From Candidatus Krumholzibacteriia bacterium (GTDB taxonomy: Bacteria; Krumholzibacteriota; Krumholzibacteriia; LZORAL124-64-63), in the NCBI GenBank assembly GCA_016744705.1, contig JADGDU010000004.1, positions 14,209 through 78,208 on the forward strand: a DNA stretch of 64,000 nucleotides, written 5' to 3'. Numbering within the stretch: position 1 is the stretch's first letter; each line of letters starts with the position of its first letter. A program made the position numbers and the translations under genes. Positions 25,359 to 47,074 of the stretch are shown here, in pieces. The notes below the pieces were generated by a model. That model was not told where the DNA came from, did not search any database, and worked only from the letters and a program-made list of their open reading frames with translations.

Positions 25359-28300
25359 CTACAAGGTCAATTTCATCAACCCAGCGAGAGCTCGGACCAA
25401 GGCACTTGGAGGCGGCAACAAGGCATCCAGTTCTTCCGTGGTTTCCACCCAATCGCACAATCCGGGCAATAGCAGGAAGTCCATAAAACCATACAAGCTC
25501 TGCCATCCTCCCACCACCACCATCACCTCTCCATCCATAACCATGCTGCGATAATCCAAATTGGTGCTGCCCACACAAAGGTAGTAGATCAGTTCTTCAC
25601 GCTCCTCAGGTGTCAGGTCTGCGATCAACCCCTCGATTAGAGCCAACCATGCTGAGCTCATCTGATCCGGGAAGTGGCGAACATCCGGATGGTGAGACTC
25701 TTTGTCTGCAGTCACGGCCTGGTTGGCCAGATACTGGGTATGGCCGCGCAGGACCATGGCTAATTCAGGCCGGATCAGCAGCTTTTCCCAGGCCTTTCCT
25801 GAAGCAAAGAAATTGGCTTTGAGATGAATTTTTGGCTTCAACTCTTCTTCATGCTGGGACAGGTATTCAATGGCATAACCCAGAGAATCCAAATAGGCAG
25901 CCGTGTTTTCCAACTCTGATTGGACCGCGGCATTTTCCGGGTAAACCTCCCGAATCCACGCAGGTGAATTGTTTTGCGCTTGATGCGTGCGGCCAGCGAT
26001 ATCGGCAACGCCTTGCTGAGGAGCGTAGAGCCCTACCTTCAATAATCCTCCCTGGGATCGAAGGGGCTCCTCCATCTGGGTTGAAAACTCAATCAAACGC
26101 CCCAAAAGCCCATGGGCCCGAGCCAGAGTTGGCGCAGCCCCACTGGGTGCTGAGTCCTCGGTGGGAGCAATGACCAGTACCTTACAACCACGCTGAGCAC
26201 TACCTGCTAACAAAGAGGCATAGATGTAACTCTGCCACAGTGAGTCAGGTACCTTGAGAATCGACCCTGGGGGCATCAAACTATAAAGCACCGCCTTGGC
26301 CACATTGACCGGCTTGTTATGAAATCCAGTTTCGTTGTGCAGTTGGAGGACAGACCCTCGATGAGCAACCCACTCGGAAGAGTTTTGGGCTTTTTCCGCG
26401 GCAAGACCCTGGTCATAATCGTGGCTTTTAGGTTGCTTACGCAGTGAGAAAGGCAACTCCTGGGGTTCATAGCCCTGGGCCAGAAGTAAGTCCCGTGCGG
26501 CATCCTTGACCGCCAAGGCACCGGGACCGGAAATCATCAGAGCCCGGTCTTCCCAATTGGCCCCCACATAATGTTCACCAATACCCATACCCGTGAAAAT
26601 GGCTGTTCCCCGATAAGGGTCCTCTTCACTGATGTCGTAGAAGGATATTTTGCGATGATCGCGCATCATGTTGTCGGGAATGGGCATCATCCCCACACTG
26701 TGCCAACTGAAGAACGAGGGATCCGCAGGATTGGTAATATTGATGTGAACCTTGATACGGTTTTTAAGCCATTTCTGCCCATATTGGCTGGAGCCCATCT
26801 GCAACAGCACCGACCTGTCCACTGCCTCGCGCAATTCGTCCTGGGCACTGGAGAGGCGCTCTTCCCATTCAGCGAAATCATCGGGCAAACTCAACTGGTA
26901 CCCCATTGGGTCGGCCAGCAGACGCAACCACAGACGAGCTTTGTTGATTTCAAAATAATGCTGATCCAGCAGGATAAAATATTGGGGTAGTTTTCCTGCT
27001 TCATCGTAGGCCTTGACCCTTTCGGTCATGGCTTCCAGATAATTCAGTGTTTGAGCATAGGCGATGGCATCGGGTTTGCCGGCACCATTGAGACCGCGGT
27101 AGTCGTGGATCCAGAGCACATGATAATCTTCGGCCTTGCGGACGGAACGCGCCATCTCCCATTGGAATTCCTCATTGATCACATACCAGACCCGGTTCTC
27201 CACCGTAAATGGATGCTCAGTGCAGCGGGCGATGATCTCGTCCAATTCCGCCTGGGAGTCGTGTTGATCAGGAGTGAGAGCATATTGCAGAGGCAGCCAG
27301 ACAAACCGTGAATCGTCCCAACGGTTGCGCAGTTCCAAGCGGTTTTCTTCCATCTGATCGGCCAGGGTTTGGAAGACAAAGAAGACGTTCCGATTAGCAT
27401 CATCGGACAATTGGTTTTCGAGCAACACCCAAGAGGCAAAGTTGGTTTGGGCGATAGCAATAAAATGGGCCAGTGAGTCGCCGGTTTTCCTTTGGCCAAG
27501 AAGAGAGTTATAAGGAATAAGGATTTCTTCCAACAGGGTGCTGCGAGCTCTGGCACTTAGCTGGCGCCCAACTTCAGTGGTGGCATTGCCCCCCGTGGCC
27601 AGGGAAAAAGCGCGATCCAGAGTTTGATGGAAGGCCTGTACTTCGGCGGGCAAAGAATGACCATGGGGAAACCGAATATCGGTGGAATCGATATGGGCTA
27701 ACAAAGGCCTCAAAACTGGTGCCATGGCCTCTTGAGCGTCGCTCCCATCCTCCTCGGCAAAAGGTTGGCTCAGCCGGGCCACCCAGCGGGATCGTTCGGC
27801 CAGTTCTGCTAAAACTTCGTTCAGGCTTTCCACCTTGTGGAAATCTGCCATCCGTTGGGGAGAGCACCTTTGAATCTTAACGTTATCACTCGACGGGCGG
27901 GTGGCTCCGATATTCCGGCCCCACAAAGGCACATTGATTCCTGCGCTGAAGGTTTGATCGCGAGATGGCAACCAGCGCAGCGCAAAAGTTGTCCCTCTCC
28001 CGAACAATCCACCACGGCGCAGGGGCAAATCCAGCTGCAGCAGAAAGTCAGCCTCCTCATCGGTGCCGTTGAAATCGACACCAACACCGCAATAAAAACT
28101 GGGGATTTCGAACAGGGCGCGCGCACCGCCGTCAAAAGCCTGGTCCCGCCAACCACCGTAACCTTCCAAACGCAGCCCACCAATGCCCACCACGGGACTG
28201 CCCAAATCTTTGGATAAACCAAGGCTGAGATAGGTCGCCATTTGGCTGGAACTTCGGGGGCGAAACCACTGCATCTCCACCCCAGCGCGCCCTTTATAGA

Positions 28301-28448
28301 CAGGGGGCATACCCAGGGAGTAGGTCGTGCCACCGCGCTCGGGACTCAGATCGCGCTGAGACCTGGCCGGTTGCGGTATGCAGATAAGACTTATCCCCAA
28401 GAACAAGGCTATGAAGCTGAGACGACCGGATAATTTCAAACGGACCAT
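25359..28448 (-). CDS. Exported phospholipase D-superfamily protein with N-terminal beta-rich domain, 1029 aa
   Basis: HRKISFYD (HxKxxxxD, H598), second HLK (H875) and cardiolipin-synthase-like VGSTNLDYRS..D.E (G960); signal peptide. Confidence 0.7.
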   Translation of the reverse strand: MVRLKLSGRLSFIALFLGISLICIPQPARSQRDLSPERGGTTYSLGMPPVYKGRAGVEMQWFRPRSSSQMATYLSLGLSKDLGSPVVGIGGLRLEGYGGWRDQAFDGGARALFEIPSFYCGVGVDFNGTDEEADFLLQLDLPLRRGGLFGRGTTFALRWLPSRDQTFSAGINVPLWGRNIGATRPSSDNVKIQRCSPQRMADFHKVESLNEVLAELAERSRWVARLSQPFAEEDGSDAQEAMAPVLRPLLAHIDSTDIRFPHGHSLPAEVQAFHQTLDRAFSLATGGNATTEVGRQLSARARSTLLEEILIPYNSLLGQRKTGDSLAHFIAIAQTNFASWVLLENQLSDDANRNVFFVFQTLADQMEENRLELRNRWDDSRFVWLPLQYALTPDQHDSQAELDEIIARCTEHPFTVENRVWYVINEEFQWEMARSVRKAEDYHVLWIHDYRGLNGAGKPDAIAYAQTLNYLEAMTERVKAYDEAGKLPQYFILLDQHYFEINKARLWLRLLADPMGYQLSLPDDFAEWEERLSSAQDELREAVDRSVLLQMGSSQYGQKWLKNRIKVHINITNPADPSFFSWHSVGMMPIPDNMMRDHRKISFYDISEEDPYRGTAIFTGMGIGEHYVGANWEDRALMISGPGALAVKDAARDLLLAQGYEPQELPFSLRKQPKSHDYDQGLAAEKAQNSSEWVAHRGSVLQLHNETGFHNKPVNVAKAVLYSLMPPGSILKVPDSLWQSYIYASLLAGSAQRGCKVLVIAPTEDSAPSGAAPTLARAHGLLGRLIEFSTQMEEPLRSQGGLLKVGLYAPQQGVADIAGRTHQAQNNSPAWIREVYPENAAVQSELENTAAYLDSLGYAIEYLSQHEEELKPKIHLKANFFASGKAWEKLLIRPELAMVLRGHTQYLANQAVTADKESHHPDVRHFPDQMSSAWLALIEGLIADLTPEEREELIYYLCVGSTNLDYRSMVMDGEVMVVVGGWQSLYGFMDFLLLPGLCDWVETTEELDALLPPPSALVRALAGLMKLTL

Positions 28449-28553: not shown

Positions 28554-29276
28554 CTATTTCACCAGCGCCATTTTTCTGGTTTCAGAGAAATCTTCCCCTT
28601 GCAGGCGGTAGAGATAAATGCCCGCAGGCAGCGCCTCTGCATTCCACTGAAAACGATGCCCCCCGGCGGGCAAGTCCCCTTCATAAACAAGAGAGACCAA
28701 ACGCCCCCGGCTGTCATAAACCTTTAAAGAGACCATTTCATCCTGGGGCAATGTAAAGGCAAGGGTCGTGCTGGGGTTGAAGGGATTGGGATAGTTTTTC
28801 TCCAGACTTGCCATCCCCGGAAGGCTTCCGTCTGGAATATCTGTGAGCCCAGTCCGCGATAGAGTAATGACTCCAGCCTGGGGGTGAGGTTCTGGATCAT
28901 CCCAGTAATTGTAATGCATTTCTATGGTCGCTCCTGTGTAACTGACCACTTCATAGAAAAAATGTTGGTAAAAATATTGCCCAGCATAAACGGTTTCTAA
29001 ATACCAGAAATGCAACCGGTTGGTGGCCTCGTCAAATTCCCATTGTTGGGTATCTGGATAATAATAGGGAGGCATCAGATGGTCCGAAGAGTCGGTATAA
29101 AAACCATTCTCCTGCACCTCCAGAGTCATGTCAAAATGGGAGCCGCCAAAGGTGGTGGAATCAAAGGTCCCCTCCCAGGTTCCCACAAAGTCTGCTTCGG
29201 TGAAGGCCCAAGCGGACAGTGGCGTCAAGCCGATGATGATGACGAATATGGCTTGGAGCGATGGGATAAATTTCAT
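28554..29276 (-). CDS. Secreted Tyr/acid-rich protein with FlgD-Ig/T9SS type-A-like C-terminal sorting domain
   Basis: Signal peptide (…PLSAWA); C-terminal NYPNPFNPST...VYDSRGRLV...LPAGIYLYRL...RKMALVK. Confidence 0.85.
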   Translation of the reverse strand: MKFIPSLQAIFVIIIGLTPLSAWAFTEADFVGTWEGTFDSTTFGGSHFDMTLEVQENGFYTDSSDHLMPPYYYPDTQQWEFDEATNRLHFWYLETVYAGQYFYQHFFYEVVSYTGATIEMHYNYWDDPEPHPQAGVITLSRTGLTDIPDGSLPGMASLEKNYPNPFNPSTTLAFTLPQDEMVSLKVYDSRGRLVSLVYEGDLPAGGHRFQWNAEALPAGIYLYRLQGEDFSETRKMALVK

Positions 29277-29575
29277 GGAAACGTTTCTCCTGGAGAATGA
29301 AAACCACTGATGCGGTTAGGGATCCTATATTTCACACATAAACGCTATCCTTTAAGGCTGGCAAGGGTCCTCGGTAGCCATTCCGCCGAAAGAATCAAAA
29401 TAATCCGGGAGATTTTTCCTTCTCGGCAAACATCACAGAAAAGCATGGTGGGGAAACCTTGGAGGGAAACCGCCATTTGCCGCAATGGGCGGTATGAGCA
29501 AAAGAGGACTAATTTATCAACAAAGGAATTGCAGATGACGGATCATTCTCAATCCATTCCCACACAACAGGTTTT

Positions 29576-30106
29576 ATGGATACCCAGAGCCCCAGGCCAA
29601 ACCCCCAATCCCATTGGATTTCACAGTTGCGCCAGCGCTTCAGTGAAGTGGCCCGGCGACGTGTGCCCTCTGATGCCGTCGAAGATCTGGTGCAGGATGC
29701 CTTGTCCATCGTGTGGAATAAAGGACCAGCAGAGGCCATCAAGGATGGGCGTGACCATCCTTCCTTACGCTGGAGTTTCAACGTGCTGCGCAACGTGATC
29801 GGCAATTACTACCAGAAACGCCGTTCCTTCGACTCTGTGGACGACCATGAATTCCCTGACGAAAAACCAGATGTATTGGCTGCCATGACCATGCAGGAGC
29901 GATCCCAAAGCATTCGAGCGGCCGTGGATGAACTGAAGGAATCCCGGCCCAGCTGTGCCCATTGGTTGTGGTCTATGGCCCAGGGTATCAAAGCCGGAGT
30001 TCTGGCAGAAAAGGATGGCTTGGAACATGCTGCCTTTTACCGAAAAATTTACCGCTGCCGGAAAATGCTGGCTGAAATTCTTCAGCGCCGGGGGGTGAGC
30101 CCATGA
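29576..30106 (+). CDS. ECF RNA polymerase sigma factor
   Basis: Region 2 AVEDLVQDAL and W..vlRN; region 4 ending YRCRKML; 176 aa. Confidence 0.85.
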   Translation: MDTQSPRPNPQSHWISQLRQRFSEVARRRVPSDAVEDLVQDALSIVWNKGPAEAIKDGRDHPSLRWSFNVLRNVIGNYYQKRRSFDSVDDHEFPDEKPDVLAAMTMQERSQSIRAAVDELKESRPSCAHWLWSMAQGIKAGVLAEKDGLEHAAFYRKIYRCRKMLAEILQRRGVSP

Positions 30107-30735
30107 GCCATCGCAAAGATGAAAAACTGGAACGCTGGCTGGAATCAGATCTCGACCCTCGCGAAATGGCCGAGTTTGAGAAACAGGCCCTCGGTGATGA
30201 GCAACTGGCCGAAGAACTATTTCAGGCCATGGAGCTGCAAGCCGGATTGTTGGAGGCTGCCAATTCAGTAGAGGATAAAGAGATTTTAAAGCCTCGGCGT
30301 AAATCCATGAAACCCAGGAATTTTGCCTGGGCCGGTGGGTTGATGGCCGCTGTTCTGGCTTTATTCGTCCTCTTCCCACAAGCCCCGTCCCCCTACAAGG
30401 AATTGCCTCTGCGGTTGCGCGGTGGTGGCGACGCCGGTGCGGCCATCGGAACTGAGCCCATGGGTGAATTATTACACTTCCCCCGTATTTTCCGTTGGCA
30501 CCCGCCGGCAGCCACTCCAGGAACTCGGTACCGCTGGGAACTGTACGATGCCCAGGCCCGGCGCCGGGCGGTGGCCGTGGTCAACGACAGTTTGCTGGTG
30601 CGCAACGCGGCAGAGACTCCAGCTGATAGCCTGGGCTCTTGGCGCTGGCTCGTCATCGAATTGAAGCCCAACGGCCTTGAGGGCGCCACCAGTGCTGCCA
30701 TTCCATTCTCTGTGATCAGGGAGAAGTCCGAATGA
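30103..30735 (+). CDS. Putative single-pass anti-sigma factor with periplasmic beta-domain
   Basis: N-terminal 'LERWLESDLDPREMAEFE' anti-sigma-like helices, TM FAWAGGLMAAVLALFVLF, LRGG motif, then a beta-rich domain; ATGA overlaps on both sides. Confidence 0.7.
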   Translation: MSHRKDEKLERWLESDLDPREMAEFEKQALGDEQLAEELFQAMELQAGLLEAANSVEDKEILKPRRKSMKPRNFAWAGGLMAAVLALFVLFPQAPSPYKELPLRLRGGGDAGAAIGTEPMGELLHFPRIFRWHPPAATPGTRYRWELYDAQARRRAVAVVNDSLLVRNAAETPADSLGSWRWLVIELKPNGLEGATSAAIPFSVIREKSE

Positions 30736-33140
30736 GTCGTACCCATTTCATGGTCAGTATTCTGACCCTGTTTCTTCTGGTTAACATAGCCATTGTCGCC
30801 ACGGGGAACGAGTCCGGCGGCTTGCAAAAACGCGCATTGGCGGCCATGTCCGACCGCAGTGCTGACCCCACCATCCAGGGTCCCCTCTTAGCCCAATACG
30901 CTGATAGCCTGCGCAGTCTGAACCCGGTGCTGGCTGCCCACTGCCTTGAGCGTTCCGGCATTGCAGCTTTCCGTGCTTCGAATCTGGACACGGCCCTGGC
31001 TCGTTGGCAAAGAGGTGTGGATTGGGCCAGAAACGTTCCAGCTGCCACAGATTCTTCCCGGCAGGCGGAATCGTCACTGCTCAATGCCCTGGCCATCGGC
31101 CACACCGCCCGTGGTGATGTGGAAGCCGCCCTCCCCATTTATGACCAGACCCTCCAGTTGCGCCACACCATGAAAGACACTCTGGGGCTTAGCCGGACCT
31201 GGGGAAATCTGGCTACGGGCTATGCCAACATCGGTCGCACCGCCGAGGCCCTCAGTGCCACGGCTGAAGCCGGACATTGGCTGAAGTTCGTGGACAACCC
31301 TCGAGGCACGGTGAGCAATGCTCTTCGCCCCGTTCTTCTTTTGACAAGCATGGGACGTCTGGATGAAGCTCTATGGCAGAGCCGCCTGGCCCTGGATATG
31401 GCCGACAGCCTTGGCGGGTTAGAAGAACGGGCCATGGCCACCATGTACCATGGCAACGCCCTTCAGGATAACGGTCGAGCCAAAGAAGCACTGCCCATGT
31501 TGCAGCAAGCTGAAAAATTGATGATCGAAAGTGGGGATGATTATTCCCTCATTTTTGTTCGGCAGAGTCTCATCCAATGCCTGCTATTTCTCGAACGAAA
31601 CGCGGAGGCACTGGCCCAGGTGCGCGCACTTCTGCCATTGGTGGAAGAAGCCAATCTTCCCCATTTGCAAACGGTCTTGCTACGATATGAAGGCCACGCT
31701 CTTTTTGCTTTGAATCACCCTTTGGAAGCCCAGCAAAAACTGGAGCAGGCCCTGGTTCTATTTGAAACACGGCGGGACAACCTGGAAGACGATCGCAGCC
31801 GCACGGGGATCTTTCAGGCCAGTGGTGAAATCTACGCAGCCCTGGCTCGGTGCCAACTGGCCGCCGGTCAAATTGAAGAAGCATTTTTGACGGTAGAACG
31901 AGGGCGAGCCAAAATCTTCAGTGATCAGATGGGCCAACCGGAGATCCGGCTGGAGAGCCTGCAAGACAAGCTGTGGGATACTGAAGCGGCCTTGGTTCTT
32001 TTTAATGACCCGGGTCGTGATCCTCTGGTGGCCTTCATTTTGGATGGCCGCACTCTGCAGATTGTGGAGTTGGGCAATGTTTCCCCCATTGCCGAAGATG
32101 CTCGTGCGGCTTTGCGGCTTTTGGCTGCCGGACAAAACCTGGAATCCTGCCGCCCGGCACTTCATCGTCTTGATGAATCCCTTTGCATTCCCATCCTATC
32201 CAGAATCAACCCCAGGGTGAAACGATTTTCGGTGGTCCCCCCTTCATTCCTTACCGGGTTTCCCCTTGGAATGTTAGAGGGCCCTGAAGGCAAAGCCTGG
32301 GGTGCCGAAACGCCCCTGAATTATTTGCCCAACGCCACGGCCCTCTTGAACCTGGGCCTACGAACCGCGCCCGCAAGCGGGGTTCTGGCCTTTGCCGATC
32401 CCAATACAACGTCACAATCCGAGGGCCTTTTGCCTTCCTCCTCTGCCCGTGCCCAAGCGGGTGTCCCCTTGCCCGAAGCCCGCCATGAAATCCAGGCTCT
32501 CACGCGAAACCCGGATCGGCAACGTATGGGCGCCCAAGCTTCGGGCACAGAGTTACGGCACGCTTTAGGCACACCACTCTCTGTATTGCACCTGGCCACC
32601 CACGCAGTAGTGGATCCTGTTGACGGAGGCCGATCTGCCATCGTTCTGGCCGGAGACAAAGGGCTGGACGCGGTCACAGCACAGGAAATTTCCGCCTTTG
32701 ATTTCAAGGGTGATCTTGTTGTCCTCAGTGGTTGCAGCACCTTTGGCACCCACCAGGTGCTGGGCGAAGGATGGTTTGGCTTGCCCCGCTCTTTTCTGGT
32801 TGCTGGGGCGCGCACTGTCATCAGTACCTTATGGGATGTGGATGACCTTGGTGCCCGGCGCTTCATGACAGCGTTCTACCAGGCCTTGTCCTCGGGCCTT
32901 CCCCGGGATCTGGCCCTGGTTCAGGCACGGAATACCTGTCGTGACCAGGGCATGCCTCCCCGAGAATGGGCTGCGTTTGTTTTGACAGGAGTGGGTGATG
33001 AAGGCCTGCCATGGTTTGCAGAGTCCCAGCTGGACCAGCAAAAATGGAACAGAAAATGGGGAGTGCTTTTGCTGGCGCTGACCGCTCTGGTGGCAACAAT
33101 CATTTGGTTTCGGCGTGATACGGGCACCTCCTCAATGTAG
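30732..33140 (+). CDS. TPR + CHAT (caspase-like, clan CD) protease, exported with C-terminal membrane anchor
   Basis: TPRs; ERGRA linker; catalytic HLATHA (H624) and VVLSGCST (C668); AGARTVISTLWDVDD; WAAFVLTG; N-terminal signal and C-terminal TM. Confidence 0.92.
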   Translation: MSRTHFMVSILTLFLLVNIAIVATGNESGGLQKRALAAMSDRSADPTIQGPLLAQYADSLRSLNPVLAAHCLERSGIAAFRASNLDTALARWQRGVDWARNVPAATDSSRQAESSLLNALAIGHTARGDVEAALPIYDQTLQLRHTMKDTLGLSRTWGNLATGYANIGRTAEALSATAEAGHWLKFVDNPRGTVSNALRPVLLLTSMGRLDEALWQSRLALDMADSLGGLEERAMATMYHGNALQDNGRAKEALPMLQQAEKLMIESGDDYSLIFVRQSLIQCLLFLERNAEALAQVRALLPLVEEANLPHLQTVLLRYEGHALFALNHPLEAQQKLEQALVLFETRRDNLEDDRSRTGIFQASGEIYAALARCQLAAGQIEEAFLTVERGRAKIFSDQMGQPEIRLESLQDKLWDTEAALVLFNDPGRDPLVAFILDGRTLQIVELGNVSPIAEDARAALRLLAAGQNLESCRPALHRLDESLCIPILSRINPRVKRFSVVPPSFLTGFPLGMLEGPEGKAWGAETPLNYLPNATALLNLGLRTAPASGVLAFADPNTTSQSEGLLPSSSARAQAGVPLPEARHEIQALTRNPDRQRMGAQASGTELRHALGTPLSVLHLATHAVVDPVDGGRSAIVLAGDKGLDAVTAQEISAFDFKGDLVVLSGCSTFGTHQVLGEGWFGLPRSFLVAGARTVISTLWDVDDLGARRFMTAFYQALSSGLPRDLALVQARNTCRDQGMPPREWAAFVLTGVGDEGLPWFAESQLDQQKWNRKWGVLLLALTALVATIIWFRRDTGTSSM

Positions 33141-33281: not shown

Positions 33282-33893
33282 ATGAAAATGGAAATTGGAG
33301 AATCCTACACCGCCTTTGCCGACCAGGAATGCCTAATTCGCGGCGACTTAGCCGAAGTCGCCACTCAGGTCAAAGAGTTGGTCGACAATGATGATCCCCG
33401 CACCTTGCTGGTTTTTGATGACCACAACGGATCACAGATGGACCTCGACTTGCGTGGAGAGTTAAAACACGTCCTGAACTGGATCGCCTCTACAAAAAAG
33501 CGAAAAACGGAGAAGACCCAGGAAGCACCCGCCCCTCAAAAACGGTCCCCTGGCCGCCCACGGCTGGGTGTGGTGGGGCATGAAGTGACCCTGCTTCCCC
33601 GCCATTGGCAGTGGTTGAAAGCCCAGCCCGGTGGAGCATCTGTCGCCCTTCGTAAGTTGGTGGACCAAGCCCGCAATGGTAATTCCCGGCAGGACCGAGT
33701 GCGCAAAAGCCGGGAAAATACGTTCCGCTTTATGAACGCCATTGCTGGAAATGAACCGGGGTTTGAAGAAGCCAGCCGCGCCCTTTTCGCGGGCAAAAAA
33801 ACATCTTTCGCCAAGGAAACCGAAAACTGGCCCAAAGATGTGCTGATTTTTGTGAATAATCTTGCCAGTGATAGTTGGATTGATGCCCCTTGA
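33282..33893 (+). CDS. DUF2239 family protein
   Basis: YTAF, L.FDD..G...DLDLRG, PGRPRLGVV..EVTLLPRHW.WL..QPGGAS..LRKLV, AGNEPGFEEASRALFA. Confidence 0.9.
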   Translation: MKMEIGESYTAFADQECLIRGDLAEVATQVKELVDNDDPRTLLVFDDHNGSQMDLDLRGELKHVLNWIASTKKRKTEKTQEAPAPQKRSPGRPRLGVVGHEVTLLPRHWQWLKAQPGGASVALRKLVDQARNGNSRQDRVRKSRENTFRFMNAIAGNEPGFEEASRALFAGKKTSFAKETENWPKDVLIFVNNLASDSWIDAP

Positions 33894-33994
33894 AAAGGGT
33901 AAACTCAGGCGAGATTTCTTTCACCGTATTACATTGACGACCGACCAATTCGGTCTTCATAACAACCATTCCAGTTTTTGAAAGGCCTTCTGCT

Positions 33995-35563
33995 ATGAGC
34001 CTAAGGGTTCTTATTTTCATATGTGGCCTCGTTTGGCTGATGGGCGCCACACCCAGCGCTTTTGCTGCCAATGATTCACCAACTCACCCCGACAGTGATT
34101 TGGTGAAAACCATCCAGAGTTTCCCCGGTCAATGGCTGAGTTTAGCCGACGCCCTGACTGAGGCCACCGCCCAGGCCTCCACCGCCCGGGCGGCCGAAGC
34201 CCGACTGGATGCATCCAAGGAGGCTGTCCGGCGGGAAAAAGGTGCCTTCGACCCAGAGTTGTATGGAGCAGCACAATGGAGTGGCGATCGATCCCCCACT
34301 TCTTCAACATTTGCCGGTGCCGATGTTCTGGAAACCGAATCGTCAGACTACTCGGCAGGCGCTCACATCAAAACCCAGTGGGGAACCGAACTGACGGCCT
34401 CCATGAACTCACTGCGCCTTTCATCCAACAGCCAATATGCCGGGCTCTCTCCCCAATACCAATCCTTTGCAGCACTGAATTTGCGCCAACCCCTACTCAA
34501 AGGATTTGGCCCCTCAGCTGCCAGTGATCTCAACTTCGCCCAAAGTATTATGGCCGCTGACGGAGCCCGTTATCAGGGCGCCGTACTCAACGTTCAGGCT
34601 GAAGTGGAAACTGTCTATTGGCAACTGTACGCAGCGGAGCGCAACCACGCAGTAACCATCATGATTCGGGACCGGACTTCAGTTTTTCTGGACGAGACCC
34701 GCAAGCGCGCCAATGCGGGTATGATTGGACCAGGCCAGGTAGCCAACGCAGAATTTTTCCTCACCGAAGCCGAACAGGCCGTGCTGGACACTGAAGAACA
34801 GATGGACCGTGCCAGCGATCGCTTGGCCAGTTTGATGGGCCGCCGAGCCGTGGGCCAACGTTTCCGTCCACAGGACGAGCCTCCTCGGGACTTTCCTCAT
34901 GTGGACCAGGACTCTCTTGTGGCCATGGCCATCCAACAAAACCCTGAACTCCAGGCCATAGCCCTGGACACCGAAGCCCTGCGAGCCCGGGAACGGGGAG
35001 CCGTGTGGGATGCTCGCCCTTCGTTGGACTTGGTGGGTAGCCTCGGCGGAAACGGACTGACCGGAGACCCCACGGCGGGATCAGGTCCCTTTCCAGATAA
35101 CATCAATGGCGGCCGCGGCGATTCGGCCAGCCAAGCCCTGACCCGTGATTTTCCCGCCTGGGATGTGGGCTTCGTTTTTTCCATACCTCTGGGAAACCGA
35201 CAAGGCAAAGGAGAGCGCCAACGCTGGCGCGCTGAAATTGCCAGGGCCGAGCAACTCCAACTGGGAGCCCAACGGCTCTTTGAAGAAGAAGTCCGGGCCC
35301 AATACCGGGAACTGGAACGCGGAAAGCAGCGGCTGGAGATTGCCACCCGTGGTGTCACCGCTTCAACCCAACAGGTGGATTTCGGTTTAATCGAATACCG
35401 GAATGGCCGCACCACCGCCTTTGAATTAGTAAGATTGGCCGCTGATCTGGCCACTGCCCAACAACGTTATTCGGACGCCATTGTGCGTACCGTCCGGGCC
35501 GTTGCCGTACTGCGGCAACTGACCGGTGGCTGGTATCCTGGAACCAAGGAGAGCGGATCGTGA
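33995..35563 (+). CDS. TolC family outer-membrane efflux protein
   Basis: Signal peptide, LRQPLLKGFG, V...YWQL, YRNGRTT..EL; first gene of a tripartite RND operon. Confidence 0.9.
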   Translation: MSLRVLIFICGLVWLMGATPSAFAANDSPTHPDSDLVKTIQSFPGQWLSLADALTEATAQASTARAAEARLDASKEAVRREKGAFDPELYGAAQWSGDRSPTSSTFAGADVLETESSDYSAGAHIKTQWGTELTASMNSLRLSSNSQYAGLSPQYQSFAALNLRQPLLKGFGPSAASDLNFAQSIMAADGARYQGAVLNVQAEVETVYWQLYAAERNHAVTIMIRDRTSVFLDETRKRANAGMIGPGQVANAEFFLTEAEQAVLDTEEQMDRASDRLASLMGRRAVGQRFRPQDEPPRDFPHVDQDSLVAMAIQQNPELQAIALDTEALRARERGAVWDARPSLDLVGSLGGNGLTGDPTAGSGPFPDNINGGRGDSASQALTRDFPAWDVGFVFSIPLGNRQGKGERQRWRAEIARAEQLQLGAQRLFEEEVRAQYRELERGKQRLEIATRGVTASTQQVDFGLIEYRNGRTTAFELVRLAADLATAQQRYSDAIVRTVRAVAVLRQLTGGWYPGTKESGS

Positions 35564-36633
35564 ACTGGAACAAGAACCTGTTTTTTGGGGCATTGATGAC
35601 TCTGTTTTTGCTGGCCGGATGCTCCGACGACTCCGGGCAATCAGCAGGCGGTTTCCAAGCCCCACCAACCCCGGTGGAAGCGGCCTTGGTGGCTGTTGCT
35701 CCAGTGGTTGATAGTTTCTCCACTGTAGGGTCTTTGGAAGCCGGCGAAGCCATCATGGTCACGACGGAAATCGACGGAATGGTCACAGCCATTCCCTTCC
35801 GCGAAGGTGGATCTGTTACCGAGGGTGAACTGATTGCCCAGCTGGATGACGCCCAACTTAAGGCGGAAGTGCAAAGGGCCAAGGCTTTGTTTGCCCAATC
35901 CAATGCCACCTGGGATCGGGTCAAAAGCATCGTCGACCAGGGCGCCGGTGCCCCTCAGGATCTGGATGATGCCCTGGCCGCCCTTAAAGTGGCTGAAGCC
36001 AACCTGGTACTGGCCAAAACGCGATTGGATAAGACCCGCATCACCGCCCCCTTCTCTGGCCTCACGGGAAAACGAAAAATTAGCCGTGGCTCTTTTTTAC
36101 GCGCCGGCTCAGCCATCACTTCCTTGGCTCAGATTGAAAATCTCAGAGTGACTTTTGCCATACCTGAACGGATCCTGGCCTCGCTCAAAGTGGGAGCCAA
36201 AGTGAGCGTGACCACCACCGCTTACGCCAACGAGCCGCTGATAGGCACCATTGATGTCATTGAACCCCAACTGGATCCGTTGACCCGCAATGTGGCCGTC
36301 GTGGCCTTGGTTGAAAACCGGGGCGGATTGCTGCGCCCCGGCATGTCGGCCACCATCGACGTAGTCCTGAACCACCGGGCCGACGCCCTCACCGTACCCA
36401 GTGAGGCCGTTTTTGTAGAGGGTGGCCAGGCTTTCGTCTTTGTGATCAAGCCCGACAGCACAGTCACCCGAACCACCCTGTCTCTGGGCACCCGTTTGAC
36501 AGCCGTCGTGGAAGTTATTGACGGCCTTCTGGATGGCCAGCAAGTCGTCAAAACGGGGCACCAGAAACTTTATGAAGGAGCCAAAGTGGCGCCCATTTCG
36601 GCCCAGACCGCAGAAGGCGGGGCCACCCCATGA
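35560..36633 (+). CDS. RND efflux periplasmic adaptor (MFP) lipoprotein
   Basis: Lipobox LAGC, lipoyl half-motifs, I.APFSG, LRPGMS; GTGA overlap. Confidence 0.93.
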   Translation: MNWNKNLFFGALMTLFLLAGCSDDSGQSAGGFQAPPTPVEAALVAVAPVVDSFSTVGSLEAGEAIMVTTEIDGMVTAIPFREGGSVTEGELIAQLDDAQLKAEVQRAKALFAQSNATWDRVKSIVDQGAGAPQDLDDALAALKVAEANLVLAKTRLDKTRITAPFSGLTGKRKISRGSFLRAGSAITSLAQIENLRVTFAIPERILASLKVGAKVSVTTTAYANEPLIGTIDVIEPQLDPLTRNVAVVALVENRGGLLRPGMSATIDVVLNHRADALTVPSEAVFVEGGQAFVFVIKPDSTVTRTTLSLGTRLTAVVEVIDGLLDGQQVVKTGHQKLYEGAKVAPISAQTAEGGATP

Positions 36634-39600
36634 AGCTGAGCGAAATCGCCATAAAAAGACCAGTTTTTGCCACGGTGATGAGCCTGGCCATTCTGCTGTT
36701 GGGGTATATTTCTTTTACCCGGCTACCTGTTCGCGAATTTCCTGAAACGGACCCGCCCATTGTCTCGGTGACCACCCTGTACCGCGGGGCCAGCCCCAAC
36801 GTGGTGGAAACAGAAATCACCGATGTCCTGGAAGAGCAGTTCACCACCATCGAGTCGGTCAAGACCATCACCAGCAGCAGCCGCGAGCAGGGTTCGGTCA
36901 TCACCATCGAATTTGAATTGAGCCGGGATGTTGATGAAGCGGCCAATGATGTGCGCGACCGTGTCTCCCGGGTGGGTGGAAGTCTGCCCCGGGAAGCCGA
37001 AGACCCCATTGTGGCCAAGGTGGATGTGAATGCGCAACCCATCATCTGGTTGGCCATTTCCAGCGACAACCATTCCACATTGGAGTTGTCAGACTACTCC
37101 GACCGTATTCTCAAAGAACGGCTGCAGCGGTTGGCCGGGGTGGGAAATGTCTTTATCGGAGGCGAGCGCCGCTATGCCATGCGAGTCTGGCTGGATCCCC
37201 TGCGCATGGCCGCTTACGACTTGACGGTGCAGGATGTGGAAAGAGCCATCCGCGCCGAGAACGCCGAAATTCCCGGTGGTAGAGTGGAAGGCAGCGAGCG
37301 GGAATTTGCCGTCCGAACCCGGGGCGAATTGAATTCACCTGAGGGTTTTGGAGCCATCATTGTGGCCAATCGCAACGATCAAATTGTGCGTTTGAGCCAT
37401 ATTGCGGAAGTGGAAGTGGGCCCAGAGGACGAACGAACCCGAACCCGTTTCAACAACTCCCCCAGCGTGGGCCTGGGCATCGTTAAACAGAAGCAAGCAT
37501 CAACCCTGGAAGTGGCCAAAGCCGTGCGCAACAGCCTTCCTGAGTTGCAATCGCTGATGCCGGCTGGCATGACCATTAACATGGCTTTCGATTCATCTGA
37601 ATTCATTGACGCGTCCGTCACCGAGGTGCAAAAAACCATTCTGGTAGCTCTCTGCCTGGTGGTGCTGGTGGTCTTTGTTTTCCTGAAGAGCATGCGGGCC
37701 ACGATCATTCCCATTCTGGCTATTCCTGTTTCAGTGGTCGGTGCTTTCGCGGTGGCCTTCGCCCTCGGATTCACCATCAACATTTTGACTCTTCTAGCCC
37801 TGGTTCTAGCCATCGGTTTGGTGGTGGATGACGCCATCGTGGTTCTTGAAAACATTGTGCGCCATGTGGAAATGGGAAAATCAAGAAGGCAGGCCGCTTT
37901 CGATGGCTCTCGCGAAATCGGCTTTGCTGTGATCGCAACCACCATGGCCCTGGTGGCCGTTTTTATTCCCGTGGCTTTCCTGACCGGTTCCGTGGGCCGG
38001 CTTTTCCGTGAATTTGGTATCACCCTGGCAGTGGCCGTCATGCTCTCGTCCTTCGTGGCGCTGACGCTGACTCCGGTGCTTTGCTCCCGTCTTTTGAAAA
38101 AGGTAGATCCCAACAAATCCCGCAGTTGGGCAGAGCGATCCTTTGATGCTTTCTTCAACTGGTTGGGAAAAACTTACGAAGCCACCTTGCGTTTCTGTCT
38201 GAGGGCGCGGCCCCTGCTGATTTTCTGTGGCCTGGCCCTGATCGCTTTTGGTGCCTGGATTTTTGGCGAGTTACCCGAAGAGCTGGTGCCCACTGAAGAC
38301 CGCGGCACCGCATTTGGTATAGTGCTCGCCCCTGAAGGTGCCACCCTGGATTACACCGATCGCTACATGCATCAGATTGAAGATCATTTGTTGCCTTTAC
38401 CCGAGCGCCGCGGACTGTTCACCGCCACTGGTTTGGGTTTTGGAGGCCCGGGCCGAGTTACCGACGGGTTTGTTTTTCTGAACCTGAAAAACCTGAGCGA
38501 GCGCGATCGCTCCCAGCAGGAGATTGTGGCCCAGATGTTCCCCCGTCTGCTGGGTGTTCCTGGTGTTTTGGCCTTCTTGGTCAACCCTCCCAGTTTGGGC
38601 GGAAACTTCTCATCGTCCGATGTGGAATACGTTCTGCAAGCTGACAGTTATGAAGAATTGGGTCACGCCGTCAGTATCATGATGGCCAAAGCCTCAGAGC
38701 TCGGATACCTCATCAATCTGGACAGCGACTTACGCCTGAACAAACCCGAACTGGAAATCCAGATTGACCGGGAAAGGGCGTCGGGGCTGGGTGTTTCCGT
38801 CACTGATATCGGCACCACACTGGAAACCTATCTCGGTGGACGGGTGGTTGGCAATTTCAAACGCGGCGCCAAACAATACGACGTGATTGCCCAGATGCGA
38901 GCCAGTGGCCGGTCCACCCCTGACATCATCGAACAGATCTATTTGCGGGGAGCCGGTGGCTTGGTGCAATTGGCCAATGTGGTCACTGTGACCGAAACCG
39001 TGGCCCCCAAAGAGCTCAACCACTTCAACCGGGTTCGTTCGGCAAAAATCACAGCCAACCTGGCGCCGGGTGTGGGCATTGGCAAGGCCCTGGACGATCT
39101 TGATGCCATTTGGCGCAGTGAATTGCCTCAAACGGTAAAACGAGATTTGGGTGGACAGTCCCGTGAATACAGGGATAGCAAAGGCTCTCTATACTTCATG
39201 TTCGTGCTGGCCCTGGTCTTTATCTTTCTGGTGCTCTCGGCCCAGTTCGAAAGTTTCGTCGATCCCATGACGATTCTTCTTTCGGTGCCCCTGGCAGTAT
39301 TTGGCGCTCTGCTATCGTTGTACATTTTCGACCAGACGCTGAACATTTTTTCCCGCATCGGCTTAATCATGCTCATTGGTTTGGTCACCAAAAATGCCAT
39401 CTTGATTGTGGAATTTGCCAACCAGTTGCGTGCGCGGGGACGGGATATCGCTGAGGCCGTAGTGGAAGCGGCGGGCATTCGCCTGAGGCCGATTCTGATG
39501 ACTTCCTTTTCTACCATCTTTGGAATTTTACCCATTGCCATTGGTTTTGGCGCCGGTGCAGAGTCTCGCCGGCCTTTGGGTATCGTGGTTGTCGGTGGGG

Positions 39601-39713
39601 TGATGTTCTCTACATTCCTTACCTTGCTGCTGGTGCCAGTGGTTTATTCCCTGCTGGCAAAATATACCAAAGTTAAAACACCCGATGAGGATGAAGGGCC
39701 CAGCCAATCCTGA
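36630..39713 (+). CDS. RND efflux transporter permease (AcrB/MdtB family)
   Basis: 1027 aa; proton-relay motifs LVVDDAIVV, VTKNAIL, RLRPILMTS. Confidence 0.96.
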   Translation: MKLSEIAIKRPVFATVMSLAILLLGYISFTRLPVREFPETDPPIVSVTTLYRGASPNVVETEITDVLEEQFTTIESVKTITSSSREQGSVITIEFELSRDVDEAANDVRDRVSRVGGSLPREAEDPIVAKVDVNAQPIIWLAISSDNHSTLELSDYSDRILKERLQRLAGVGNVFIGGERRYAMRVWLDPLRMAAYDLTVQDVERAIRAENAEIPGGRVEGSEREFAVRTRGELNSPEGFGAIIVANRNDQIVRLSHIAEVEVGPEDERTRTRFNNSPSVGLGIVKQKQASTLEVAKAVRNSLPELQSLMPAGMTINMAFDSSEFIDASVTEVQKTILVALCLVVLVVFVFLKSMRATIIPILAIPVSVVGAFAVAFALGFTINILTLLALVLAIGLVVDDAIVVLENIVRHVEMGKSRRQAAFDGSREIGFAVIATTMALVAVFIPVAFLTGSVGRLFREFGITLAVAVMLSSFVALTLTPVLCSRLLKKVDPNKSRSWAERSFDAFFNWLGKTYEATLRFCLRARPLLIFCGLALIAFGAWIFGELPEELVPTEDRGTAFGIVLAPEGATLDYTDRYMHQIEDHLLPLPERRGLFTATGLGFGGPGRVTDGFVFLNLKNLSERDRSQQEIVAQMFPRLLGVPGVLAFLVNPPSLGGNFSSSDVEYVLQADSYEELGHAVSIMMAKASELGYLINLDSDLRLNKPELEIQIDRERASGLGVSVTDIGTTLETYLGGRVVGNFKRGAKQYDVIAQMRASGRSTPDIIEQIYLRGAGGLVQLANVVTVTETVAPKELNHFNRVRSAKITANLAPGVGIGKALDDLDAIWRSELPQTVKRDLGGQSREYRDSKGSLYFMFVLALVFIFLVLSAQFESFVDPMTILLSVPLAVFGALLSLYIFDQTLNIFSRIGLIMLIGLVTKNAILIVEFANQLRARGRDIAEAVVEAAGIRLRPILMTSFSTIFGILPIAIGFGAGAESRRPLGIVVVGGVMFSTFLTLLLVPVVYSLLAKYTKVKTPDEDEGPSQS

Positions 39714-43871: not shown

Positions 43872-44431
43872 GATCCCGTCTCCAGATCGGTCTTCATGGT
43901 TTTGTACTCAGACAACAGGGCCCGCAGTTTTTTCCTGGCTCGGGACAACCGTGCTTTGGCTGTGCCCACCGGAGTACCCATGGCTTCGGCAATCTCCGGA
44001 TGGGTGAATCCTTCGAGGTCATGCATCACCAGGACCAGGCGATGTTTCACGTCCAAGGTCTCGATGGCCCCATCCAGCCTGCGCCGCAGATCACTGTCTG
44101 CTGGTGGTACAGCCGTGGCCGATTCCAAAACCTCGGGGTCCACTTCTCCGGTTTCGAATTGCCGGATGCGTTGGCGTTTTCGCAATGCCGAATAGATCAC
44201 CGAAGTGGCAATGCGGTGCAACCAACCCTGGAAGGGTCCGTCACCTCTGAAATCGGCCAGCCGGTCGAAGGCCCTCATGAACGTATCCTGAGTCAAATCT
44301 TCAGCCAGGGTTGCATCCCCTGTCATGCGGTAGGCCAAGCGGTACACCCGGCCCACATGGGCGTCGTACAATCCGCGTTGCGCTGCAGCATTTCCGCTGA
44401 GGGTATTTTTAATCAGGCTTTGCTCGTCCAC
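43868..44431 (-). CDS. ECF RNA polymerase sigma factor (RpoE/SigW-like)
   Basis: AEDLTQDTF, WLHRIA, HDLEGFTHPEIA..MG.PVGTAKARLSRAR. Confidence 0.95.
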   Translation of the reverse strand: MDEQSLIKNTLSGNAAAQRGLYDAHVGRVYRLAYRMTGDATLAEDLTQDTFMRAFDRLADFRGDGPFQGWLHRIATSVIYSALRKRQRIRQFETGEVDPEVLESATAVPPADSDLRRRLDGAIETLDVKHRLVLVMHDLEGFTHPEIAEAMGTPVGTAKARLSRARKKLRALLSEYKTMKTDLETGS

Positions 44432-46123: not shown

Positions 46124-47074
46124 ATGACACAATCAACACCCATCATTCCAATACTCCGCTACACGGTTTTCACCCTCCTCATTTTTCTGATCCCCTCCCA
46201 AGCTTCGGCCTATACCAAATACACTATTAATGACGATGAGACTTATTGCGGCAGTTGCCATGGAGATTTCCGGGATAATAATTACATATCTGCAGTGGAC
46301 GGAGAAAACTGGGGAGATATCCACGACCTGCACCGTAGCACAATGCTTAGCGGCGATTGCAACGCCTGCCACATTGCCGGAGACTACTTTCCCGTTTACA
46401 TGGATTCTTCAGTGGGCGGAAGTGGGTTGGATCCTATCGGTTGCATGGGATGCCATGGTCGGGACGAAGACAATGTCCCTGGAAACCCCTCTTATCCTTT
46501 TGGGGCCGGAGCCGGGCTCAGACAACACCACACCAACACAGGTGTTGATGATTGCCTCGCCTGCCATGATGATGCCAGCCCCTCAAATTATACCCCTGTG
46601 GGTGAGTCAGTTTTGCCTCCCTATTATGCCGACCCGGGAAACTCCCATCCAGCCATGCCCACTGTTCCCTGCAATGACGATGGATCCGAAAATTTTGCCG
46701 GCCTCAGCATTGGCTTAGACAATGATGGAGACGGCCTATATGATGCGGTCGATCCTGAGTGCAACCTCTCCGGTCTGCCTGATGGTGTGTTGCCTGTGGC
46801 CATGCTATCCCAGAATCATCCGAACCCATTCAACCCCAGCACCACCATTGAGTACATGGTCAGCAGCCCAGGCCAAGTGCGGTTGCAGGTTTTCTCCATG
46901 AGTGGGAAACTGGTCACCACTCTGGTTGATGCACAGCACGATGTAGCTGATACGTATCAAGCGGTGTGGAATGGTCATGACGATCAAGGCCGGCCCCTGC
47001 CCAGTGGAGTCTTTTTCTATCGCCTGGCATCCTCCAGAGGGTCTGAAATGAAGAAAATGATTTTACTGAAATAG
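46124..47074 (+). CDS. Tetraheme c-type cytochrome with FlgD-Ig/T9SS-like C-terminal sorting domain
   Basis: Signal peptide; CGSCH, CNACH, CMGCH, CLACH; DNDGDG motif; NHPNPFNPST...SGVFFYRL...KKMILLK. Confidence 0.9.
   Translation: MTQSTPIIPILRYTVFTLLIFLIPSQASAYTKYTINDDETYCGSCHGDFRDNNYISAVDGENWGDIHDLHRSTMLSGDCNACHIAGDYFPVYMDSSVGGSGLDPIGCMGCHGRDEDNVPGNPSYPFGAGAGLRQHHTNTGVDDCLACHDDASPSNYTPVGESVLPPYYADPGNSHPAMPTVPCNDDGSENFAGLSIGLDNDGDGLYDAVDPECNLSGLPDGVLPVAMLSQNHPNPFNPSTTIEYMVSSPGQVRLQVFSMSGKLVTTLVDAQHDVADTYQAVWNGHDDQGRPLPSGVFFYRLASSRGSEMKKMILLK

Follow-up and report, generated by a model that had tools for sequence, protein, structure and literature searches.

A divergent ECF-like sigma factor, an anti-sigma-like membrane protein and a separately encoded TPR-CHAT protease: a possible split form of the DdvA/DdvS type in Krumholzibacteriia

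The window analysed here, a stretch of 64,000 nucleotides from an uncultured Krumholzibacteria bacterium, contains a trio of plus-strand genes for a sigma factor, an anti-sigma-like protein and a TPR-CHAT protein, with a divergent gene on the opposite strand. The features are listed below in window coordinates; the dyad codon coordinates were obtained by arithmetic from the ORF start.

28554-29276, minus strand: ORF of 240 aa, the divergent T9SS-tagged gene
29407-29432, plus strand: promoter-like two-part motif GGGAGAT-N12/13-CAAACA, 144 nt before the sigma start codon
29576-30106, plus strand: ORF of 176 aa, divergent ECF-like sigma factor
30103-30735, plus strand: ORF of 210 aa, single-pass anti-sigma-like protein
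30409-30426, plus strand: LRLRGG, anti-sigma residues 103-108, after the TM helix, pLDDT <50
30415-30423, plus strand: conserved core Leu105-Arg106-Gly107, candidate cleavage or docking motif
30732-33140, plus strand: ORF of 802 aa, predicted exported TPR-CHAT protease
32601-32735, plus strand: catalytic dyad, His624 codon at 32601-32603 and Cys668 codon at 32733-32735

The trio genes are coupled by two ATGA overlaps (30103-30106 and 30732-30735), both of which had been reported by the first-pass annotation and are confirmed by direct reading of the sequence; the former combines the sigma stop codon with the anti-sigma start codon. The order sigma, anti-sigma, CHAT is kept in all five loci found in genome contigs, two of which (L033 and L034) lose one end of the trio at a contig end. 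Two other arrangements were identified, one with the CHAT gene first (CHAT, sigma, anti-sigma in G051) and one with the CHAT gene divergent from the other two (G056, G057 and G058), giving three gene orders across eight genera of Krumholzibacteriia. CHAT orthologs (E<=1e-60) are present in 17 of 208 genomes of the phylum, and 15 of these 17 also carry the sigma/anti-sigma pair (14 by the anti-sigma family search and G058 by direct inspection); as for the remaining two, the CHAT gene of G117 is cut off at the contig start and that of G034 is a weak partial match. The pair was found with no adjacent CHAT gene of this family in two genomes, G039, whose two CHAT orthologs are located elsewhere, and G059, where it adjoins a different TPR-CHAT of 1301 aa. 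This conserved neighbourhood and the matching presence and absence across genomes uphold the view that the three genes form a functional unit, but the divergent cargo gene is not kept with them. Every locus examined encodes the anti-sigma and TPR-CHAT proteins in separate ORFs; a fused form is absent among the 150 listed representatives, and a search among longer proteins, of little weight as evidence, gave none either. PADLOC gave no match on seven neighbouring proteins except a generic TPR model, and neither CRISPR or tandem arrays in 15000-48000 nor a Cas protein or CBASS nearby were detected.

The 176-aa protein, first described as an ECF sigma factor, is only ECF-like and misses every curated cut-off: Sigma70_r2 scores 19.9 bits (cut-off 24), TIGR02937 23.9 bits (cut-off 42.9) and TIGR02989 35.2 bits over residues 32-167 (cut-off 124.55). 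Many ECF NCBIfam models match below cut-off, spanning residues about 20-170, and the type III-E sigma model matches weakly (25.5 bits, cut-off 100). The protein is the weakest of the 36 sigma-70/ECF matches in the genome, and Sigma70_r2 reaches E<=0.01 in 5 of 13 family members. Region 2 and region 4 blocks are conserved across 13 homologs, and the best sequence match in the PDB is the ECF SigE entry 2q1z (E 0.02). The family represents a strongly diverged sigma lineage whose promoter-like motif is distinctive.

No Pfam or NCBIfam match was obtained for the 210-aa protein, and none even at E<=1 in 18 of 18 family members. The AlphaFold model consists of three helices (residues 2-13, 19-31 and 33-61), a TM helix (76-90), a predicted disordered linker (92-116, pLDDT <50) and a beta-sandwich (121-204), and Foldseek returned generic FN3/Ig domains. 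Residues 1-61 carry no Cys/His zinc motif, and with no PF13490 match either, the protein falls outside the zf-HC2 class (PF13490, often with H-x3-C-x2-C). The nearest named Atlas clusters contain zf-HC2 anti-sigma domains in 14-54% of members (score 0.95), a lead from a language model only. At 50% identity the family falls into about 208 clusters, none of them named among those looked up, and it represents an unannotated type of anti-sigma. An exposed LRLRGG directly after the TM had been pointed out by the first-pass annotation; the juxtamembrane position is confirmed, but conservation is confined to a hydrophobic-Arg-Gly/Ser core. Among 153 family representatives, position 106 is Arg in 140, position 105 is L/F/M/V in 130 and position 107 is G/S in 120, and with variable positions on both sides, no other part of the linker is as well conserved as the motif. 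It is present in seven aligned distant sigma-linked loci and missing in all four orphan homologs that lack the sigma and CHAT genes.

The TPR-CHAT protein begins with a signal-like segment (residues ~1-23), followed by the TPR solenoid (~27-400), a helical hairpin (450-489), the CHAT domain (475-753 of 802 residues; PF12770, E 1.4e-47) and a TM segment (~777-793), and was modelled with a pLDDT of 87.8 and a pTM of 0.84. The His624/Cys668 dyad is intact, as first described, and invariant in 18 of 18 aligned homologs. Each of these also has a hydrophobic segment at the N-terminus and another at the C-terminus that is followed by Arg/Lys; based on these segments, with signal peptides and topology judged by eye and by the positive-inside rule, the CHAT part is most likely periplasmic, in line with the original prediction. 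Among PDB structures, the fold is closest to DdvA (8rot_A, E 2.2e-15), with craspase Csx29 and separase ranking next.

The interaction between the FN3-like ectodomain of the anti-sigma protein and the CHAT protein was modelled with a score of 0.67, against 0.00 for the best of three controls; 58 of 80 solved complexes attain that mark, as do 2 of 110 mismatched pairs. Contacts agree between runs to 57% or more, and the partner has a pLDDT of 72 or higher. The interface is formed by residues 144-159 and 181-199 on the anti-sigma side and by residues 455-476 and 629-630, the latter near His624, on the CHAT side, and these are the most conserved stretches of both proteins. The confident contacts exclude anti-sigma residues 103-109, and the motif is not placed in the active site. 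The modelling supports the binding of the ectodomain to the CHAT protein; cleavage at Arg106, which lies outside the confident contacts, is putative. The genome has two genes for M50 site-2 proteases, including one of the RseP type.

The two-part motif upstream of the sigma gene recurs at ten other loci (11 loci in all) and ends 6-7 nt before the ATG at four of them. The whole genome contains two sites only, the second on another contig, and none for a reversed control pattern. Within the genus, each of the two other genomes with the trio has one site, and the three genomes lacking the trio have none. Copies precede T9SS-tagged genes in the relatives G127, G051 and G053, and no copy was found at the divergent CHAT genes of G056, G057 and G058. 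On the strength of this conservation, from which the promoter reading is entirely drawn, the motif is probably the autoregulated promoter of the sigma gene.

Collectively, these observations are consistent with a three-gene envelope signalling unit, which we regard as a split variant of the DdvA/DdvS type because, among solved structures, it most resembles DdvA, in which anti-sigma, TPR and CHAT are fused in one protein; we assign this reading, with the mechanism that follows, a probability slightly below one half (about 0.47). The anti-sigma protein in the membrane would hold the ECF-like sigma factor via its three-helix cytoplasmic domain, and in the model its FN3-like ectodomain docks on a conserved helical hairpin adjacent to the CHAT domain. 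The His624/Cys668 dyad may be activated when the TPR solenoid senses a signal, and would cut the anti-sigma in the disordered juxtamembrane linker, after Arg106 of the hydrophobic-Arg-Gly/Ser motif. By analogy with RseA and DdvA, the shortened anti-sigma would then be passed to the RseP-type site-2 protease, freeing the sigma factor to read GGGAGAT-N12/13-CAAAC at its own promoter and possibly at very few others before genes for secreted proteins, of which this genome has one, on another contig; in relatives, these other targets may often be T9SS-tagged proteins. Somewhat less probable is the full statement that a separately encoded periplasmic caspase-like protease, docked on the FN3 ectodomain, cuts its own anti-sigma after the motif Arg, a dozen residues outside the membrane, and that the divergent ECF-like sigma factor then drives a small secreted, often T9SS-tagged, regulon.

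The alternative that survives best, although unlikely, is that the CHAT protein acts as a co-anti-sigma or shield that binds both ectodomain and linker, the Arg-Gly motif serving as a pseudosubstrate (as in securin/separase) or the protein as a bulky block (as in RseB/RseA); signal-induced release or self-destruction of the CHAT protein would then expose the anti-sigma to a general protease and afterwards to RseP. This idea is in keeping with the complex model, where two domains are in stable contact and no peptide occupies the active site, and with the TPR-CHAT part of DdvA, which blocks RseP, with protease activity not seen in the work described in the cited passages of PMC11506125. A pure shield would, however, have no need of a dyad that is invariant in 18 of 18 homologs, and the conserved P2-P1-P1'-like motif in a disordered linker resembles a cleavage site.

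We consider it more doubtful still that the CHAT protein is mainly an output of the sigma factor, an autoregulated operon raising a periplasmic protease against T9SS cargo, envelope proteins or invaders while the anti-sigma is inactivated by other means. The CHAT gene does lie behind the sigma promoter in the same operon in this genome and seven others, and the genome offers few further motif sites (two in all). Against this, the CHAT gene stands divergent and without a motif copy in G056, G057 and G058, so the CHAT protein fits a regulator better than an output, and the specific interface predicted with the ectodomain, together with the absence of the motif in orphans without CHAT, points to the anti-sigma as its partner.

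The model first proposed, in which the CHAT protein cuts the anti-sigma and the sigma factor turns on 28554-29276, appears improbable. The divergent gene does encode a small secreted protein with a T9SS sorting domain, as described at the outset (PF18962, E 2.7e-8; TIGR04183, E 2.1e-9, 37.2 bits against a cut-off of 23; both above cut-off). It qualifies as T9SS cargo: its sorting domain, at the C-terminus, is of type A, and the genome has a T9SS, with a PorU-type sortase encoded (493.5 bits, cut-off 420). A regulatory link would agree with the 299-bp intergenic region common to this gene and the sigma gene, and with the motif copies before T9SS-tagged proteins in the three relatives. However, the sole conserved promoter-like motif in this region faces the sigma gene, and the best score towards 28554-29276 is 1.4 bits, compared with 21.8-28 for true copies. 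The gene is also not kept beside the trio, its place upstream being taken at other loci by a co-directional LVIVD-repeat protein gene, by queG and a radical SAM gene, or by a PPDK-like gene; and since the genome holds 145 matches to the T9SS sorting domain, T9SS-tagged neighbours are common. The divergent gene is probably not among the sigma targets; it adjoins the unit, of which it is at most a putative member. The comparative data (start and stop codons that overlap, linkage in three gene orders and eight genera, matching presence and absence) and the complex model with its clean controls already contradict the idea that the three proteins are neighbours by chance and do not cooperate, for which nothing speaks beyond how weakly the sigma and anti-sigma proteins match known families.

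In canonical RIP, which PMC11506125 also summarises, the single-pass RseA is cut in the periplasm by DegS (site-1) and then by RseP (M50 site-2). The present unit likewise has a single-pass anti-sigma and an M50 protease in the genome, whereas its site-1 candidate is a dedicated, co-encoded clan-CD cysteine protease instead of a shared serine protease.

The idea has a precedent: DdvA/DdvS of Myxococcus xanthus is already described (PMC11506125), and DdvA is the best structural match here. According to the cited passages, DdvA is a transmembrane anti-sigma with a periplasmic TPR-CHAT, proposed to cleave itself as a site-1 protease; in the experiments they report, no self-cleavage was seen, and dyad mutants showed wild-type behaviour. 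Within what is cited from PMC11506125 and PMC6061681 (PDB 8rot, 8rw5), both systems pair a sigma factor of ECF type (ECF-like here) with an anti-sigma that spans the membrane once, and have a His-Cys dyad in a TPR-CHAT part that is periplasmic (by prediction here) and a flexible juxtamembrane linker as the proposed cut site, followed by RseP. In contrast to DdvA, the TPR-CHAT here is encoded apart from the anti-sigma and brings its own signal segment and a C-terminal anchor; the ectodomain of the anti-sigma is small and FN3-like, and the protein lacks a Cys/His zinc motif; the linker is marked by a sharply conserved Arg-Gly/Ser motif, and no CBASS or CRISPR defence island was detected nearby; sequence similarity between the CHAT protein and DdvA is undetectable. 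The locus belongs with the DdvA/DdvS type in its predicted periplasmic TPR-CHAT with a dyad and its transmembrane anti-sigma, and departs from it in not being a fused polypeptide. DdvA is the only studied anti-sigma with a periplasmic TPR-CHAT, and neither its signal nor the proposed self-cleavage has been demonstrated. The natural split form separates enzyme from substrate and offers a candidate site (Leu105-Arg106-Gly107) and a predicted docking surface, so whether a caspase-like protease starts sigma release across a membrane becomes answerable by co-expression of two proteins. If true, this would be the first system in which intramembrane proteolysis of an anti-sigma, initiated by CHAT, can be demonstrated with enzyme, substrate and site all defined.

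Craspase (type III-E; Cas7-11/gRAMP, Csx29, Csx30, Csx31, RpoE; PMC10028731) also ties a TPR-CHAT protease to sigma control, and Csx29 is the second-best fold match. It is cytoplasmic, RNA-guided and CRISPR-linked, whereas the protease here is predicted to be exported and has no CRISPR/Cas nearby; identity with craspase was rejected on the signal-like N-terminus and C-terminal TM of the CHAT protein and the lack of Cas or defence matches nearby. Specificities vary among known CHAT proteases, a point against the proposed cut: as summarised in PMC11506125, craspases cut after Met or Leu and separase after Arg in an unstructured motif. The candidate site here follows Arg. Separase-securin (PDB 5u1t, 7nj1) also resembles the CHAT protein in combining a TPR-like solenoid with a caspase-like domain, although separase is eukaryotic and cytoplasmic or nuclear, and no sequence similarity between the two was found. 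ECF54, compared by its description in the cited part of PMC8999054, comes from Actinobacteria, is described there without an anti-sigma and has CHAT, subtilase and carboxypeptidase genes in its genomic context; it shares with the present unit the genomic linkage of an ECF or, here, ECF-like sigma factor to a CHAT gene.

The four ORFs reported in the first-pass annotation are present as described, and the ATGA overlaps at both gene junctions of the sigma/anti-sigma/CHAT trio can be read in the sequence. The observation as a whole was confirmed, and its interpretation was only partly supported.

28554-29276, minus strand: T9SS-tagged protein gene (240 aa; type A T9SS sorting domain, above curated cut-offs), the divergent gene
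29407-29432, plus strand: two-part promoter-like motif GGGAGAT-N12/13-CAAAC
29576-30106, plus strand: ECF-like sigma gene (176 aa)
30103-30735, plus strand: anti-sigma-like gene (210 aa)
30732-33140, plus strand: TPR-CHAT gene (802 aa)

A CHAT domain (E 1.4e-47) accompanies TPRs in the 802-aa protein. Although ECF-like, the 176-aa protein falls below every curated cut-off of Pfam and NCBIfam, being the weakest among the 36 sigma-70/ECF matches of the genome, and the 210-aa protein has no family match in Pfam or NCBIfam. A PorU-type sortase and 145 matches to the T9SS sorting domain were identified in the genome, and the intergenic region gave no match in Rfam. Coordinates of sub-features were derived arithmetically from ORF-level outputs.

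The trio is kept together across genomes. In all five loci from species-representative genomes (5/5) the sigma gene comes first, then anti-sigma, then CHAT, the genes overlapping or abutting; in two of these loci the trio loses one end to a contig end. This order recurs in one metagenome locus, and the ORFs of a second, truncated metagenome locus match it as judged by layout alone. Across the phylum, the anti-sigma profile matched 30 of 208 genomes at E<=0.001, 19 of them with a full-length match at E<=2e-11. Among 15 loci inspected for gene order, five have the order of the window (G053, G127 and the refetched species-representative loci G149, G152 and G154). The order is CHAT, sigma, anti-sigma in G051; the CHAT gene is divergent from the sigma/anti-sigma pair in G056, G057 and G058. 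Besides these 15 loci, G052 shares the order of G051, judged by coordinates, and the trio genes lie at two contig ends in G054. The pair stands alone in G039, where two CHAT orthologs are encoded elsewhere in the genome, and beside a different, 1301-aa TPR-CHAT in G059. In four genomes of one family an anti-sigma-like gene stands as an orphan, lacking both sigma and CHAT. A 16th locus (G117) consists of a single CHAT gene truncated by the contig start. Conversely, a CHAT ortholog was found in 17 of 208 genomes at E<=1e-60 and the anti-sigma in 15 of those 17, the remaining two being G117, with its cut-off gene, and G034, with a weak partial match. Conservation of the triad elsewhere, for which a gene-neighborhood survey had been proposed, was borne out, related genomes in these counts not being independent. 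Because the linkage survives three gene orders in eight genera, the comparison gives strong evidence that the trio genes work together. On contig C247 of G004, a genome of the same genus, a partial and weak anti-sigma-like match (E 1.8e-5) shares a short contig with a different, 1218-aa CHAT protein, a hint that the genus holds additional paralogous sigma/CHAT modules.

The claimed dyad of the CHAT protein is intact, with His624 and Cys668 invariant in 18 aligned homologs. All 18 also retain hydrophobic segments at both termini, the N-terminal one signal-like and the C-terminal one with basic residues after it, and from these segments we infer that the bulk of the protein faces the periplasm. 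The AlphaFold model is confident (pLDDT 87.8, pTM 0.84). Among solved structures it resembles the anti-sigma DdvA most closely (8rot_A, E 2.2e-15), and after that the craspase Csx29 and separase; a sequence search of the PDB with the CHAT protein gave no match.

In the model of the anti-sigma-like protein (pLDDT 72.4), three helices at the N-terminus precede a TM helix (76-90); a linker of low confidence (92-116) then connects to a beta-sandwich (121-204) resembling generic FN3/Ig domains. A PDB sequence search with the anti-sigma profile found no match, and cluster look-up of 10 distant relatives returned 'hypothetical protein' or no name, and gave no taxonomy for them. A language-model look-up placed the protein close to clusters in which some members carry the zf-HC2 anti-sigma domain, which we take as a lead only. 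An exhaustive profile search yielded 208 cluster representatives at E<=0.001, of which the best 150 are nearly all 185-235 aa long; fused anti-sigma-CHAT forms were sought among longer proteins and none was found, which is weak evidence.

The LRLRGG sequence noted just past the TM helix (residues 103-108) is real, and proves to be the local form of a broader hydrophobic-Arg-Gly/Ser motif. Arg106 and Gly109 are invariant in the close anti-sigma family. In an alignment of 153 proteins (148 new representatives among those listed plus 16 first hits, 164 in all, minus 11 outside 150-270 aa), position 106 is Arg in 140, position 105 is L, F, M or V in 130 and position 107 is G or S in 120, while the flanking linker positions vary freely. 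The motif is present in all seven distant sigma-linked loci aligned and missing in four orphan homologs without sigma and CHAT. Three conserved residues in a disordered tether have the look of a protease site or a docking peptide. The four orphans (L059, L060, L062 and L064; one family, same class) show the same layout of helices, TM helix and FN3 domain without the Arg-Gly motif, their genes being flanked by those of an MscS-like channel and a lipoprotein.

Modeling of the CHAT protein with the LRGG loop had been suggested, and a complex was predicted from CHAT residues 25-765 and anti-sigma residues 93-210. In this model, which passed its test, the ectodomain docks on the CHAT protein with a score of 0.67 (runs 0.63, 0.67 and 0.68), against 0.00 for the best of three controls; the runs share at least 57% of contacts, with a partner pLDDT of at least 72. 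Of 80 solved complexes 58 scored this high, as did 2 of 110 mismatched pairs; these counts apply only roughly here because our own alignments were used. In the modeled interface, a conserved face of the FN3 domain (144-159 and 181-199) packs against a conserved helical hairpin of the CHAT protein (455-476) and residues 629-630 near His624. Since the Arg-Gly motif is absent from the confident contacts, the model supports a partnership, not cleavage.

The closest described system is DdvA of Myxococcus xanthus, a transmembrane anti-sigma with a periplasmic TPR-CHAT (passages of PMC11506125). The proposal made there is that a signal causes DdvA to cut its own juxtamembrane linker, after which RseP acts; in the same passages cleavage was not observed, dyad mutants behaved as wild type, and DdvA-like fused proteins were found only in Myxococcota and one Comamonas (PMC11506125). 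In contrast to DdvA, the TPR-CHAT and the anti-sigma are split here, the anti-sigma has an FN3 ectodomain and no zinc motif, and no defense genes lie near the trio. PADLOC on seven neighboring proteins gave only a generic TPR match, and Tandem Repeats Finder found no repeats in 15000-48000. A literature search for a split sigma/anti-sigma/periplasmic CHAT module returned only DdvA and CRISPR papers, in which no split form is described. For the trio, cleavage, sigma binding and promoter use are all points that we infer, and the trio offers a concrete cleavage hypothesis open to test.

The two-part motif lies upstream of the sigma gene in 11 loci, 144-201 nt away in the window's clade. In four GC-rich relatives 6-7 nt separate its end from the sigma ATG, a spacing expected for the promoter of a leaderless transcript. 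A pattern derived from the sigma-upstream copies occurs at two sites only in the genome, and the reversed control pattern at none. One site is that of the window; the other is found on a different contig, 79 nt ahead of the gene of a 193-aa secreted protein.

G000 (the window's own genome), contig C22:29183-31828, locus L038, outside the window: second motif copy and the genes behind it, a 193-aa gene then a 652-aa hydrolase-like gene

A PWM scan found no third site close to these (next best 20.4 bits); both sites of this genome, together with an unrelated regex hit in the window, had gone into the matrix, so that the top two scores are partly by construction. Within the genus, two other trio genomes have one site each and three genomes without the trio have none. 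The 193-aa protein has no family match, has three paralogs in the genome and ends in a short conserved DG(I/V)KS(L/Y)YR tail; in G005 the same tail recurs on an unrelated secreted protein of 236 aa, whose gene lies 1.7 kb past the CHAT gene.

The sigma had been proposed to switch on the divergent T9SS-tagged gene. In relatives, motif copies precede a 1049-aa T9SS-tagged protein gene just after the CHAT gene (G053), a 183-aa T9SS-tagged protein gene just before the sigma gene (G127), and, in G051, both a 180-aa homolog of the latter and a lipoprotein. Toward the window's divergent gene the best motif score is 1.4 bits, versus 21.8-28 for true copies, and this gene is not conserved beside the trio. 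For these reasons sigma control of secreted, T9SS-tagged proteins in general has support from relatives, and the divergent gene as its target does not. Where the CHAT gene is divergent from the pair, it lacks a motif copy, which fits a regulator better than an output. A minus-strand promoter is at odds with the motif's orientation, which always follows the downstream gene, and with two loci that have no divergent gene; a palindrome or RNA hairpin fails as the palindrome is not preserved between loci. Three pattern hits (G056 C10, G057 C6 and G057 C9) look like chance, since they fall within ORFs and no signal peptide follows.

A second conserved element, TGGACC-N18-TATA(C/G)T, resembles a housekeeping-type promoter. 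It is placed about 75 nt before the sigma start codon in L031, L032, L034, L035 and L036, within the long leader between the two-part motif and the sigma gene, and is not recognizable in the window itself. In L031, L032 and L036, the co-directional gene upstream of sigma codes for a beta-propeller protein of LVIVD repeats whose C-terminal domain is of FlgD_ig/T9SS type; the sequence ahead of that gene falls beyond the contigs.

Several neighbors in the window were also recorded. A 1029-aa protein with a signal-like N-terminus (25359-28448, minus strand) has no Pfam, NCBIfam or PADLOC match, and its gene is missing from the related loci; because 105 nt separate it from the T9SS-tagged gene ahead of it on the same strand, the two may form one operon. 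On the 3' side of the trio (33282-39713, plus strand), a DUF2239 gene (E 5.5e-70) is followed by an apparent TolC-like/membrane-fusion/RND pump operon, the names being assigned by eye from the translations alone; no gene of this stretch is conserved beside the trio. Further along, at positions converted from contig coordinates, are a second, canonical ECF sigma gene (43919-44383, minus strand; 101.7 bits, above cut-off) and another T9SS sorting domain (46820-47062, plus strand).
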